From contig JAZOBQ010000016.1 in assembly GCA_045596005.1 (NCBI GenBank), forward strand, positions 1,783 through 65,782: 64,000 nucleotides of DNA. The letters run 5' to 3'. This document shows, piece by piece, positions 17,802 through 39,843 of the stretch (positions are counted from its first letter, which is position 1; each line of letters opens with the position of its first letter). The position numbers and the translations under genes are program-made. The notes beneath the pieces are model-generated. The model saw only the letters and a list, made by a program, of their open reading frames with translations. It did no database searches and was not told the DNA's origin. The DNA comes from Oscillospiraceae bacterium. Its GTDB lineage: Bacteria > Bacillota > Clostridia > Oscillospirales > Oscillospiraceae.

Positions 17802-17830
17802 TTATACACGGCTACGGAGGAGATGTTACA
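17802..17830 (-). promoter_or_regulatory. island promoter motif copy A (TGTAAC-N15-GTGTATAA)
   Basis: The minus strand reads TGTAAC ATCTCCTCCGTAGCC GTGTATAA. It lies in the gap between the PP2C stop (17844) and the small membrane ORF (17745). Confidence 0.5.
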
Positions 17831-17843
17831 CAAAAATCAAAAT

Positions 17844-18548
17844 TTATTTTGCAATGATACAGACGGCGGTATTGTTGTCCTGCTTCGGGTCAGCGGCGGC
17901 GAGGACTATTCGGCGCATCGAATCGAGCCATTCGCCCGCTGTGGAGGTCTCGGCAAGAGTGCGGAGCATGTCGTCCTCCGTTACCGGCTCCCAGAAACCG
18001 TCCGAGCAAAGCAGGAATCTGTCGCCGGGGAGTACGGACAGCTCGGTGCTGTCTATCTTCGGTTTTTCGCCGACTTCACCCAACACGCGGAAAACTTTGT
18101 TTCTGTCCTTGTGATGGCGGAGCGCATCGGGGGGCAGCTCACCAAGCCTTACGGCCATTTGTACAAGGCTGTGGTCGACGGACTGAAATATTATCTCACC
18201 GCCGCGAAACTGGTAGATCCTGCTGTCGCCGACATGGGCAGCTACAGCCGAGCCCTCTTTTAACCACAGCGCCGCAAGGGTCGTGTGGGCAAAGGCAGTC
18301 TTGGCACAGATGACATCGCTCGCGTTCAGTATGGCGTAGAGAAGCTCATCCTCATCGAAATCCTTGCCGTCAACAAAATCTGTGATTTCATCGACGGCGA
18401 GCTGCGAGGCGATCTCGCCACCGGCGTGTCCGCCGAGACCGTCGGCCACTATGGCGAGCAGGGCAGAGCCTGACGCGCTCACTCCGAGGGAGTCTTCGTT
18501 GTTGCCGCGTTTTCCAATATCGGTATATACGGAGTACTGATAATCCAT
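17844..18548 (-). CDS. PP2C-family Ser/Thr phosphatase
   Basis: ORF 17844..18560 (alternative GTG start) trimmed to ATG 18548 (MDYQYSVYTDIGKRGNNEDS). Contains 'AIVADGLGGHAGGEIAS' and 'LLCSDG' PP2C motifs. Confidence 0.85.
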   Translation of the reverse strand: MDYQYSVYTDIGKRGNNEDSLGVSASGSALLAIVADGLGGHAGGEIASQLAVDEITDFVDGKDFDEDELLYAILNASDVICAKTAFAHTTLAALWLKEGSAVAAHVGDSRIYQFRGGEIIFQSVDHSLVQMAVRLGELPPDALRHHKDRNKVFRVLGEVGEKPKIDSTELSVLPGDRFLLCSDGFWEPVTEDDMLRTLAETSTAGEWLDSMRRIVLAAADPKQDNNTAVCIIAK

Positions 18549-18585
18549 GGACGAGATCACATCCTTGCGTTTGAAATCATCATTA

Positions 18586-18614
18586 CATACACGGCTTAAT
18601 GATCGTTTGTTACA
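18586..18614 (-). promoter_or_regulatory. island promoter motif copy D (TGTAAC-N16-GTGTATG)
   Basis: The minus strand reads TGTAAC AAACGATCATTAAGCC GTGTATG. It lies between the LRR lipoprotein stop (18638) and the PP2C start. The spacer is 1 nt longer than in the other copies. Confidence 0.4.
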
Positions 18615-18637
18615 TAAAGAAAGTATGCGGAAAAGTG

Positions 18638-20005
18638 TCAGGAGGGGTCTTTTATCTCATAATCGTTTATCCAGGCGACGCAGCCGGGAAGATTCTTGCC
18701 CCAGCCTTCTTCCTTCTTGACTGTGCTCCAATTGCCGGCAGAGCCGTTATAGTAGAGCGTTCTCAGCTCACTTGTGCCGTAGAAAAATTCGGAGCCTACG
18801 GTTTTTAGAGTACGGGGAAGGGAGAGCTTCGTCATGGATTCGCAGTTATAGAAAGCGCGGGTGCCGATGTTCTCGAGGCCTTCAGGCAGGATCATTTCAA
18901 GAAGGTTTTTACAGCCGTAAAAACCTTGCTCTCCAATAGAAAGCACCTGAGCGCCGAGTTTTACAGCTTCGAGGCTTTCGCAGTCCTTGAAGCTCGCAAA
19001 GCCAACGGATGAGCCGCACTCAAGGGTCTTAAGCTCGCTGCAGCCGTTGAAAAGGAGATCGCCCATGGTTTCAACATTAGAGCCTATCCTTGCCGTTACT
19101 ATTCCGGTGCAGCCGGAGAACGCGCGGCTGCCGATCACGGTGACGCTTTCGGGAAGCGTGACTTCCTTAAGTTTTGCGCAGTCTGCGAAGGCATAGTCGC
19201 CGATGGTTTTGAGGTTTTCGGAAAAGCTTACATTCTGCAGCTCGCTGCAGCCGCTGAAGGCGTGGCTTTCGAGATGCTCAACGCTGTCTTCGAGAACGAG
19301 GCTGACGAGCTTTGTATTGTTGCTCAGCGCGGCTGCGCTGACATTGCAGGCCACGCGAAGACTGGTAAGACCGGTGCAGGCATCGAAAACGCAGTTGCCG
19401 AGCTGCTGAATGCTGCTACCGAGAATGGCGTTTTTAAGCTCGCTGCAGCCGGAGAATACATAAGAGCCGACGGTCTTGATATTGCCGCCGAGGTTGACGT
19501 CAGTAAGCTTGACGCAGCCGGAAAAAGCATAGTCTGCGATCTCCTCAAGTCCGCTGCCGAAATCGATCTGGGTGAGCTCACTGCAGTTTGCAAAGGCGTA
19601 GTACTCAATTTTGCGTACACTGTCGCCGATGATGATCTTCTGCACCTTGTCAGCTTTGGCGAATACTTTTTCACCGATGAGACTGACTCCGTCGCCGATC
19701 TCGATGATGGTAATGCTGTCGACAAAGTCTTTGAATGCCGTGGTATCGGTAATGCTCTGGGTGATATCCGCACCGCTGAGCAGGAGTCTGCCGTCCTCGT
19801 ATAAGGAGAACAAAACGCCGCTGCCAAGCATTTCCTCATAAATTACGATGGGTTCGTTTCGGCTATAGTTTCCGTCGGACTGAGTGCTCTGGCTGGGCTG
19901 GGTCTCCAGTGCGGGAAGGCTTTCGGGGTCGGGACCTGAGCTGCCGCAGCCGACCATGAGCAGGGCGAGGGAAAGAGAGAGTCCCAGAATGATTCTTTTC
20001 ATCAT
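18638..20005 (-). CDS. lipoprotein with BspA-type leucine-rich repeats
   Basis: 455 aa. Lipobox 'LLMVGC'. About 12 tandem ~23-aa repeats of the form 'I.IGD.AF..C..L..V.LP.S' (e.g. VTLPESVTVIGSRAFSGCTGI). Confidence 0.85.
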   Translation of the reverse strand: MMKRIILGLSLSLALLMVGCGSSGPDPESLPALETQPSQSTQSDGNYSRNEPIVIYEEMLGSGVLFSLYEDGRLLLSGADITQSITDTTAFKDFVDSITIIEIGDGVSLIGEKVFAKADKVQKIIIGDSVRKIEYYAFANCSELTQIDFGSGLEEIADYAFSGCVKLTDVNLGGNIKTVGSYVFSGCSELKNAILGSSIQQLGNCVFDACTGLTSLRVACNVSAAALSNNTKLVSLVLEDSVEHLESHAFSGCSELQNVSFSENLKTIGDYAFADCAKLKEVTLPESVTVIGSRAFSGCTGIVTARIGSNVETMGDLLFNGCSELKTLECGSSVGFASFKDCESLEAVKLGAQVLSIGEQGFYGCKNLLEMILPEGLENIGTRAFYNCESMTKLSLPRTLKTVGSEFFYGTSELRTLYYNGSAGNWSTVKKEEGWGKNLPGCVAWINDYEIKDPS

Positions 20006-20014
20006 AATATCTCC

Positions 20015-38969: not shown

Positions 38970-38997
38970 AAGACCGAAGCTCCGAAAACAAATAAAA

Positions 38998-39035
38998 CCC
39001 GCATCGATTGGCCGAGCTTTCCCAATCGATGCGGG
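38998..39035. terminator. bidirectional terminator between kinase 2 and precursor P3
   Basis: Perfect 14-bp stem CCCGCATCGATTGG (38998-39011) / CCAATCGATGCGGG (39022-39035). Flanked by an A-run and a T-run, between convergent genes. Confidence 0.8.
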
Positions 39036-39055
39036 TTTGTTTTAGCTTTTGCGTA

Positions 39056-39406
39056 TCAGCAGCCGAGGCTGTGCAGAGCCTTGGAGATGGAGCGGGTTAC
39101 GAGATAGGCGGCGAGGAAGGAGGCCAGACCGACACCGGCGATCTTGGCGGCGGCGATCAGAATGGCGGTGGTGACAGCGAAACCGCCGCTGACATCGTCG
39201 AGATCCTCCTCGCTGAGCTCGTCGTTTTTGCCCTCGACGACCTTTGCGATCTCTTCCATGAAGGTCTTGGTTTCATCGAGACTCAGCTCGAGTCCGTTTG
39301 CGTTGAGCTTTTCCTGCATTTCCACCAGAGTTTCGGAGCTGAACAGATCTTTTACGAATGCCTCGTCGTTAAACAGCTTTTCTACTTTTTCATTGAAGTT
39401 GGTCAT
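39056..39406 (-). CDS. precursor peptide P3: Nif11-like leader, double-glycine site, 41-aa core ending in Cys
   Basis: ORF 39056..39472 trimmed to ATG 39406 (GGAGG 9 nt upstream), giving 116 aa. Leader '..NDEAFVKDLFSSETLVEMQEKLNANGLELSLDET..NDELSEEDLDDVSGG'. Core FAVTTAILIAAAKIAGVGLASFLAAYLVTRSISKALHSLGC. Confidence 0.85.
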   Translation of the reverse strand: MTNFNEKVEKLFNDEAFVKDLFSSETLVEMQEKLNANGLELSLDETKTFMEEIAKVVEGKNDELSEEDLDDVSGGFAVTTAILIAAAKIAGVGLASFLAAYLVTRSISKALHSLGC

Positions 39407-39423
39407 TTTTCTATACCTCCTGA

Positions 39424-39759
39424 TTAATCTCTGCGGGGATCTTTGCAGGCTTTTTTCTTGCCGTCGTGCCATCCGGCTTTCGCACCGGCAATGGCGCTTA
39501 CAACGATGAGAGTTCCGAAAATGAGTATCATTCCGTTGAAGCCGCCGGAGACGGAATCGAGTTCGTCTTCGCCGAGTTCACCGCCGGCGTTGTTGATCAT
39601 TTCGCCGAGCTTTTCGATCTCTTCTATGCTGAACTCGAGACCCTTGGCTGCGAAGGCTTTCTGAGCTTCCTCGGCGGTGGTGATCTCCGCGAGAGCGGCA
39701 ACGAATTCTTTATCTGCAAATGCGTCTTCTGCGAGTTTCTTGAGCTGATCAATATTCAT
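39424..39759 (-). CDS. precursor peptide P4: Nif11-like leader, double-glycine site, 38-aa core with one Cys
   Basis: 111 aa. Leader 'MNIDQLKKLAEDAFADKEFVAALAEITTAEEAQKAFAAKGLEFSIEEI..GEDELDSVSGG'. Core FNGMILIFGTLIVVSAIAGAKAGWHDGKKKACKDPRRD. GGAGG RBS upstream. Confidence 0.85.
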   Translation of the reverse strand: MNIDQLKKLAEDAFADKEFVAALAEITTAEEAQKAFAAKGLEFSIEEIEKLGEMINNAGGELGEDELDSVSGGFNGMILIFGTLIVVSAIAGAKAGWHDGKKKACKDPRRD

Positions 39760-39814
39760 GTTTTGTTCCTCCGATTTATTGAAGTTGTTTTTTCCTTAAT
39801 GTGTTTACGTCTAT

Positions 39815-39843
39815 ATATACACAGCTCCTTTTCAGTCGTTACA
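39815..39843 (-). promoter_or_regulatory. island promoter motif copy B (TGTAAC-N15-GTGTATAT)
   Basis: The minus strand reads TGTAAC GACTGAAAAGGAGCT GTGTATAT, about 55 nt upstream of the P4 ATG (39759). Confidence 0.5.

Follow-up and report, generated by a model that had tools for sequence, protein, structure and literature searches.

Candidate extracytoplasmic function promoters repeated across an NHLP/Nif11-type bacteriocin island of an Oscillospiraceae bacterium

Introduction

Ribosomal peptide clusters can carry a dedicated extracytoplasmic function (ECF) sigma factor of their own. In the microbisporicin lantibiotic cluster of an actinomycete, the cluster-situated ECF sigma factor MibX has a cognate anti-sigma factor (MibW), autoregulates and drives several operons of the cluster through one repeated motif, GAACC-N15-GCTAC, with no direct control over the precursor operon (PMC4973701). 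Here we analyse a stretch of 64,000 nucleotides (nt) from an Oscillospiraceae bacterium (NCBI GenBank assembly GCA_045596005.1, contig JAZOBQ010000016.1, positions 1,783 to 65,782 of the forward strand; henceforth the window), in which a single ECF-type sigma factor gene heads the exporter operon of a bacteriocin island, and four copies of a paired-box motif, TGTAAC-N15/16-GTGTA, lie between the island genes. We argue, from comparison of related sequences, that these four sites are likely to be ECF-class promoters read by RNA polymerase carrying the island sigma factor.

Among described ECF promoters, those of Bacillus subtilis SigW follow the consensus TGAAAC-N16,17-CGTA(T) (PMC2375139), SigX uses the -35 box TGTAAC (PMC12153292), and B. 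subtilis ECF promoters carry a T-tract after the AAC (AACnTTTt; PMC5758882). ECF16 promoters have the form (T/C)GTAAC-N17-CGAA (PMC8315932; PMC3420878). The window motif, written as TGTAAC-N16-TGTAT, is one base per box away from the SigW consensus TGAAAC-N16-CGTA.

The export machinery also has described counterparts, namely the NHLP/Nif11 bacteriocin export systems represented by the protein families TIGR03794, TIGR03796 and TIGR03797 (Haft 2010, PMC2887384). Like these systems, the island encodes an HlyD-type subunit, a C39-peptidase ABC subunit and a second ABC subunit together with a precursor bearing a Nif11-like leader. All three exporter subunits score above the equivalog cut-offs (171.6 bits against 156.2 for TIGR03794, 935.9 against 853.3 for TIGR03796 and 731.4 against 709.4 for TIGR03797), and the precursor P1 scores above the Nif11-leader cut-off; judged by its gene content, the island is an NHLP/Nif11-type bacteriocin system. 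In the literature searched we found no description of this sigma factor, motif or locus, and no sigma factor, PP2C, Hanks kinase, STAS or TIR-FHA component linked to NHLP/Nif11 systems.

Results

Paired boxes at fixed spacing within one island

We scanned both strands of the window for TGTAAC-N15/16-GTGTA, with 100 dinucleotide-preserving shuffles as the null. Four exact matches were found (sites A to D; Table 1), against no match in any of the 100 shuffles. They are exactly the four copies that a first-pass annotation, made by reading the sequence alone, had reported; the sequences, strands and 29-nt coordinates given there were all correct. Three copies have the exact N15 spacing, and site D is the only one in the window with a 16-nt spacer. 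The first box by itself is not enriched (16 occurrences of TGTAAC observed vs 14 expected), and therefore the signal resides in the pairing of both boxes at a fixed distance. A lone TGTAAC at 6461, previously remarked on for lacking the second box, indeed lacks it (the best match there has 2 mismatches), and neither scans allowing one or two mismatches nor a 38-column weight matrix built from related sites identified a further credible site in the window.

All four sites fall within a 24-kb island (15.8-39.9 kb), lie between genes and face the next gene, as had been claimed for them, with 39-59 nt separating GTGTA from the start codon. Their spacers show no sequence similarity to one another, and the copies are therefore not recent duplicates. 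Site C lies 17 nt from the start codon of the sigma gene, from which it points away. Site B, 11 kb away from the sigma gene, begins about 20 nt past a strong intrinsic terminator, which isolates the precursor genes P4 and P3 from upstream transcription; these two genes therefore need a promoter of their own at exactly the place where site B is found.

Recurrence of the motif in related loci

We fetched 30 loci (referred to by L-numbers) through homologs of the sigma factor, with sigma identities of 38-77%, and scanned and shuffled approximately 290 kb of their sequence. These loci contained 27 non-redundant exact motif copies against 0.4 expected from shuffles, and 26 of the 27 had a target gene within approximately 100 nt: a short leader-like open reading frame (henceforth the mini-ORF) in 11 cases, a peptide with a double-glycine (GG), Nif11-like leader in 9 and a PP2C phosphatase in 6. 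An independent sample of five long contigs (including L033 to L036) was obtained by a profile search with the precursor peptides, and in four of the five, which hold 8 copies in all, the motif stood directly ahead of a peptide gene or operon. Related contigs thus contributed 35 further exact copies (27 sigma-linked and 8 peptide-linked) in about 20 contigs, nearly all of them 30-100 nt upstream of a mini-ORF, a Nif11/double-glycine precursor or a PP2C gene, i.e., the same target classes as had been named for the window. In the four loci with gene calls (L028-L031), all 8 sites lie in gaps between called genes. These calls were used in place of a test for sites within ORFs of at least 120 amino acids (aa), which was uninformative because spurious ORFs cover 93% of this G+C-rich DNA.

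The position and orientation of the copies are conserved as well. In 13 lineages a motif copy abuts the start codon of the sigma gene and points away from it, and in an alignment of the sigma/mini-ORF intergenic region from seven lineages only the two boxes are conserved besides the coding sequences and ribosome-binding sites. Two further sigma-adjacent sites are one-base variants (CGTAAC in L012, GCTTA in L014). At least 12 loci, with sigma identities ranging between 77% and 38%, keep the gene module sigma-HlyD-ABC1-ABC2-STAS-TIR/FHA-LRR(-PP2C), and orthologs of site D, all with N15 spacing, lie between the LRR and PP2C genes of L001/L028, L029, L030 and L031. PP2C genes follow the motif in L001, L018, L019, L029-L031 and L035. 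In short, the motif is non-random, conserved in position and orientation, and co-occurs with this sigma factor family. The first-pass annotation had proposed that the island sigma factor drives all four window sites, and this phylogenetic footprinting in related contigs supports its proposal.

Two loci with 41-44% sigma identity are wired differently. In L018 the motif heads an operon of peptide, PP2C, FHA/zinc-ribbon and sigma genes on one strand, and L019 has a similar layout. This is the usual ECF autoregulatory arrangement, and the sigma factor is probably autoregulated in these lineages, to judge from gene order. Both loci also carry back-to-back divergent motif pairs, at 5159-5184 (minus) and 5241-5266 (plus) in L018 (56 bp apart) and at 7237-7262 (minus) and 7521-7546 (plus) in L019 (258 bp apart), one copy facing PP2C and kinase genes and the other facing the peptide-PP2C-FHA-sigma-exporter genes.

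The peptide-linked contigs extend the motif beyond the sigma locus. In L033 (9358-11387), an operon orthologous to the genes behind site A (a membrane ORF, P2, P1 and a radical SAM enzyme) has the motif 52 nt upstream (9358-9383), making it the positional ortholog of site A. Neither a sigma gene nor an exporter gene occurs in the 10 kb to either side of it, where the genes are unrelated and include those for an AraC-type regulator, a MatE transporter, a phosphopantetheinyl transferase and a large non-ribosomal peptide synthetase. As this copy has no sigma gene nearby, the factor that reads it would act in trans, as a dispersed regulon predicts. In L034 (8376-10774) four cassettes follow one another, each made up of a motif copy and a precursor gene, and their core peptides diverge; L035 has one copy ahead of a peptide and one ahead of a PP2C gene. 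The fifth contig, L036, has a weaker peptide homolog amid housekeeping genes and no motif.

The sigma factor and the anatomy of its candidate promoters

The island sigma factor consists of sigma2 and sigma4 domains only (Pfam Sigma70_r2, E 2e-14; Sigma70_r4_2, E 6e-18), and its TIGR02937 score of 107.6 bits is well over the cut-off of 42.9. With these domains and a length of 180 aa, in the 180-200 aa range of the class, it qualifies as an ECF (group 4) sigma factor. It falls below every subfamily or equivalog cut-off in NCBIfam (52 vs 243 for SigW and 86 vs 206 for BldN, with SigM and SigZ likewise not reached), and its closest solved structure is B. subtilis SigW (E 1e-11). More than 250 homologs were found, mostly from metagenome-assembled genomes labelled as Oscillospiraceae, Ruminococcaceae, Lachnospiraceae or Clostridiales. 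The invariant residue N77 is the putative equivalent of RpoE Asn84.

Across the 31 non-redundant sigma-linked and window sites, the spacer between TGTAAC and GTGTA is N15 in 29 (26 of the 27 sigma-linked ones). Spacer sequences vary freely among copies, whereas the boxes and a few flanking positions are kept. Several features that played no part in the site search are conserved, namely a purine after AAC (A in 21 sites, G in 8 and a pyrimidine in none), a T-rich stretch after the -35 box, T17, C19, TAWA after GTGTA and a pyrimidine-purine step at +9/+10 nt after GTGTA, which is a plausible transcription start. The -35 box is also preceded by a tract rich in A and T.

Read as an ECF promoter, the motif would comprise a -35 box TGTAAC(R) and a -10 box (G)TGTAT(A) placed 16 nt after the AAC, with transcription starting approximately 10 nt after GTGTA at the conserved step. 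ECF promoters have a -35 box that ends in AAC, a fixed gap of 16-17 nt and a short CGT-type -10 box containing G and T. The motif agrees with this in its AAC-ending -35 box and in the 16-nt gap to TGTA, both of which are nearly invariant. The location also agrees with that of ECF promoters, with sites upstream of and facing their target genes at positions conserved across species.

Candidate readers of the boxes

The island sigma factor is the best candidate reader of the motif because the window encodes no second sigma factor, the island proteins scanned yielded no other DNA-binding domain, a motif copy adjoins its gene in 13 lineages, and L018 and L019 place it in a motif-headed operon. Several observations weigh against it. 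The -10 box reads TGTA, with T where most ECF promoters have C, and not the usual CGT-type sequence. In a shifted register (GTAACA-17-TATAWA) the same site resembles a weak housekeeping promoter. Most ECF sigma factors autoregulate and a co-transcribed anti-sigma factor is usual, though not obligatory; here, Pfam and NCBIfam scans found no anti-sigma domain in the island proteins, and mismatch scans, the weight matrix and alignment found no same-strand motif copy upstream of the sigma gene in the window lineage or its close relatives. Three loci (L015, L016 and L022) have the sigma/exporter module but no motif in the DNA at hand, and no motif variants were found in these or in L006, for which short flanks or different wiring are possible reasons. 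Clean covariation between protein and DNA is absent too: RpoE reads position -34 with Ser172 (PMC7776599), and at the equivalent place the island sigma factor has V and that of L018 has T, while the -35 box is TGTAAC in both. We had considered the specificity code of Todor 2020 as support, in that R-V in the island sigma factor versus K-T in SigW fits T-for-A in the -35 box, and dropped it as L018 has R-T with the same TGTAAC.

A further point on that side of the balance is that the sites may be genuine ECF promoters that are read, alone or redundantly, by another ECF sigma factor encoded elsewhere in the genome. The -35 and -10 boxes are alike between ECF paralogs, overlapping recognition is documented for B. 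subtilis SigM, SigW, SigX and SigV (PMC5758882), our survey covers 64 kb of this genome, and the L033 operon has the motif with no sigma gene nearby. However, an unlinked sigma factor would not predict a motif that abuts the start of this particular sigma gene in 13 lineages and tracks the sigma/exporter module between 38% and 77% identity, and we consider this explanation unlikely. It is likewise improbable that the boxes serve as the operator of an ordinary transcriptional regulator, or that they form an atypical sigma-A promoter assisted by an activator. LytTR regulators control many bacteriocin loci, and their promoters (ComE, BlpR or PlnC boxes) have two 9-bp direct repeats approximately 12 bp apart ahead of a core promoter and are accompanied by a LytTR regulator and a histidine kinase. 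TGTAAC and TGTATA share TGTA at a 22-bp period, or about two helical turns, which recalls such repeats; however, these 4 bp are all that the boxes share, the site is strictly directional and so placed, 30-100 nt from start codons, that it leaves no space for a separate core promoter, and the conserved module encodes neither a LytTR regulator nor a histidine kinase (by the gene content of the window and L028-L031) nor any other DNA-binding regulator. A sigma-A promoter has TTGACA, a spacer of 16-18 nt and TATAAT with a conserved T at -7. The shifted reading GTAACA-N17-TATAWA matches the -35 consensus at 4 of 6 positions, but at the base corresponding to -7, 22 of the 29 sites carry A and just 4 carry T, and a sigma-70 scan flags none of the four window sites. 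Chance recurrence, or a non-functional relic of duplicated DNA, has nothing in its favour beyond the shortness of the boxes (11 fixed bases); given the empty shuffles and 35 further copies at orthologous positions with unrelated spacers, we regard it as barely worth entertaining.

Sigma gene expression and the proposed circuit

The first-pass annotation had named no promoter for the sigma gene itself, and the intergenic alignment of seven lineages likewise reveals none. The sole sigma-70-like candidate, TTCGCA-16-TATTAT at 28355-28328 (minus), was rejected as it is not conserved in that alignment. Ahead of the sigma operons of L015 and L016, sigma-A-like promoters could be read by eye. In the window lineage, the sigma factor and exporter are presumably expressed independently of the sigma factor's own activity.

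We propose the following circuit, with the island sigma factor as the reader of all four sites. The sigma gene and the NHLP-type exporter operon would be expressed from another, unconserved promoter. Once active, the sigma factor would switch on four units: the divergent mini-ORF, possibly with the kinase genes behind it (site C); the PP2C phosphatase (site D); the membrane ORF, two precursor peptides and the radical SAM enzyme (site A); and, 11 kb away, two further precursor peptides (site B). The exporter would thus be present first and its peptide substrates would then be induced as a block.

The divergent mini-ORF

The mini-ORF is the most conserved target of the motif. It belongs to a family of 57-77 aa whose genes abut the sigma gene and diverge from it, with orthologs in L001, L002, L003, L005, L008, L010, L012, L013, L025 and L029-L031; it is absent from L016, L018 and L019, where PP2C and FHA/zinc-ribbon genes precede the sigma gene instead. 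Thirteen orthologs align over an N-terminal helix (NIEKLLxLxADYHxF), an acidic stretch, an invariant ELxxxxLDxV-A-A-A and a short, hydrophilic, hypervariable tail. No Pfam, NCBIfam or PDB sequence family matched it, and all 23 database homologs are unnamed.

In double-glycine leaders, the motif L-12...E-8 L-7...V/I-4 x G-2 G-1 is cleaved by a C39 peptidase. In a profile comparison with hhalign (E 6e-5, probability 65%), the hydrophobic and acidic positions of the mini-ORF's ELxxxxLDxVAAA lined up exactly with those of ELxExxLDxVSGG in the GG precursors of the island; at positions -2/-1, however, the mini-ORF has an invariant Ala-Ala (A44, A45), not Gly-Gly. From this alignment it looks like a double-glycine-type leader with Ala-Ala at the putative cleavage position. 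Such a product could serve as a signal outside the cell or as an anti-sigma factor controlled by export, or it could simply be one more exported peptide.

That the mini-ORF is the control element of the circuit rather than a toxin is a speculative and rather doubtful idea, which could take two forms. In one, the C39 exporter would process and secrete it as an autoinducer. The neighbouring Hanks kinases would sense it through their LRR/DUF285 ectodomains, and PP2C, STAS and FHA proteins would pass the signal on to the sigma factor. In the other, it would act as an anti-sigma factor that the bacteriocin exporter expels, much as FlgM leaves the cell through the flagellar export apparatus. Either form, if true, would mean that an ECF sigma factor is controlled without a classical anti-sigma factor, via peptide export and Ser/Thr phosphorylation.

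Gene content of the island

The sigma operon is tightly packed on the minus strand, in the order sigma, HlyD, C39-ABC, ABC2, STAS, TIR+FHA and LRR lipoprotein (Table 1). The N-terminal 297 aa of ABC2 (23824-24714, minus) form an extension ahead of the TIGR03797 region that consists in part of two duplicated stretches of about 130 aa and is matched by no Pfam family. The protein combining TIR with two FHA domains belongs to the sigma/exporter operon in all related loci with good coverage; a TIR protein is unexpected in a bacteriocin export operon.

P1 and P2 both have long leaders with a VSGG end, and the core of P1 resembles a class IIb bacteriocin. The 52-aa membrane ORF ahead of them may have an immunity or accessory role. 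Downstream of the mini-ORF, the genes of the kinase arm may be co-transcribed from site C. The untranslated gap of 345 nt before the first kinase (28556-28901) contains no terminator-like site. The gap has no Rfam match and folds only marginally better than shuffles (z -1.7), and an Rfam scan of 15-42 kb returned no matches.

The surroundings of the sigma gene are rich in signalling proteins, with the STAS protein, PP2C phosphatases at 17844-18560 and 36037-36795, and Hanks-type kinases at 28902-30275 and 36780-38969, and with no RsbW-type (GHKL) anti-sigma kinase among them. This set, together with the FHA protein, looks like a partner-switching system in which eukaryote-like kinases and FHA replace the usual kinase, and feedback would be possible as one PP2C is itself a motif target. 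The extracellular part of the second Hanks kinase (36780-38969, plus) matches the NAD-glycohydrolase translocation F5/8 type C domain (PF25302, E 7e-21). Just outside the island, two mirrored ORFs of about 1200 aa occupy opposite strands (12056-15703, minus; 12083-15667, plus). The plus-strand ORF appears genuine, with a signal peptide followed by a repeat whose two halves are about 540 aa each, and its minus-strand partner resembles a composition artefact.

Table 1 Candidate promoter sites and genes of the bacteriocin island (window coordinates)
Feature	Position	Strand	Description
Site A	17802-17830	minus	TGTAAC-N15-GTGTATAA; exact match 17805-17830; promoter-like, for the TM-ORF/P2/P1/radical SAM operon; predicted start ~17795
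Site D	18586-18614	minus	TGTAAC-N16-GTGTATG; exact match 18588-18614; promoter-like, for PP2C; predicted start ~18578
Site C	28287-28315	plus	TGTAAC-N15-GTGTAATA; exact match 28287-28312; faces the mini-ORF, divergent from the sigma gene; predicted start ~28322
Site B	39815-39843	minus	TGTAAC-N15-GTGTATAT; exact match 39818-39843; promoter-like, for P4/P3; predicted start ~39808
Sigma factor, 180 aa	27728-28270	minus	ECF-type, sigma-70 family; heads the exporter operon and is proposed to read the motif
Mini-ORF, 64 aa	28364-28555	plus	Leader-like; MARNIEKLLRLVADYHEF...DELSLEELDFIAAAG, then a variable hydrophilic tail
Rest of sigma operon	18638-27735	minus	No motif copy of its own
HlyD-type adaptor	26899-27735	minus	TIGR03794
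C39-peptidase ABC exporter	24732-26906	minus	TIGR03796
Second ABC subunit (ABC2)	21763-24714	minus	TIGR03797
STAS protein	21386-21751	minus	Pfam
TIR+FHA protein	20015-21370	minus	Pfam
BspA-type LRR_5 lipoprotein	18638-20005	minus	Pfam
PP2C Ser/Thr phosphatase	17844-18560	minus	Site D target; NF033484 E 1e-42, under cut-off; probable ATG 18548
52-aa membrane ORF (TM-ORF)	17587-17745	minus	First gene past site A; ortholog at the same position in L033
P2 precursor peptide	17261-17581	minus	Ortholog in L033
P1 Nif11-like leader precursor	16908-17225	minus	TIGR03798 33.6 bits (cut-off 32.3); TIGR03949 21.7 (cut-off 21.5)
Radical SAM/SPASM-type enzyme	15847-16845	minus	Last gene of the site A unit; Pfam Radical_SAM E 4.5e-22; ortholog after P1 in L033
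P4 Nif11-like/double-glycine precursor	39424-39759	minus	First gene past site B; TIGR03798 E 4e-7, 30.1 bits, just below the 32.3 cut-off
P3 double-glycine precursor	39056-39406	minus	Downstream of P4; weak TIGR03949 match
Intrinsic terminator of upstream esterase gene	39863-39913	minus	18-bp stem, then U8; -32.5 kcal/mol, z -6.9
Kinase arm	28902-38969	plus	STK-TPR, LRR, vWA, LRR, PP2C, STK (Pfam); downstream of the mini-ORF

Discussion

Judging from the placement of the sites, every precursor gene of the island appears to be governed by a single sigma factor through a single 26-nt motif. This reading provides a testable wiring diagram for an uncharacterised bacteriocin island that is widespread in uncultured Oscillospiraceae-like bacteria of the gut and rumen. 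Heterologous expression of the sigma factor should switch on Nif11/double-glycine peptide operons that are otherwise silent, and the motif can be used to find unlinked regulon members in genomes, as exemplified by L033. The setting of the sigma gene is also unusual, in that it is found among STAS, PP2C, Hanks-kinase, FHA and TIR proteins rather than paired with an anti-sigma factor.

The candidate promoters share with those of B. subtilis SigW and SigX the AAC-ending -35 box, a 16-nt gap to the xGTA -10, the T-rich stretch after the -35 box and the location just upstream of the targets. The island -35 box is identical to that of SigX (whose -10 is CGWC); SigW is matched in spacing and in the GTAT portion of the -10 box. 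By contrast, the island -10 box is (G)TGTAT and not CGTA or CGAC, and the sigma factor is only distantly related to SigW (E 1e-11). Unlike the SigW and SigX regulons, its putative targets are bacteriocin precursors and signalling enzymes rather than envelope-stress genes, and its gene has neither a co-transcribed membrane anti-sigma factor nor, in this lineage, an autoregulatory motif copy. ECF16/SigF-type promoters have the -35 sequence GTAAC in common with the island sites but differ in their -10 box (CGAA), spacer length and proteobacterial hosts.

At the level of cluster organisation the closest parallel is MibX, as in both cases a pathway-specific ECF sigma factor lies within a ribosomal-peptide cluster and one short motif is repeated ahead of several operons. 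The island differs from the microbisporicin cluster in that the motif stands ahead of the precursor genes themselves, no MibW-like gene is present, the sigma gene has no motif copy of its own in this lineage, and the bacterium is of Clostridia type (Oscillospiraceae-like). A cluster-situated ECF switch is thus already known from MibX, and by this comparison the island case is new in occurring in a different phylum and peptide class: it would extend cluster-situated ECF control of ribosomal peptides from actinomycete lantibiotics to the class II-like bacteriocins of Clostridia-type bacteria.

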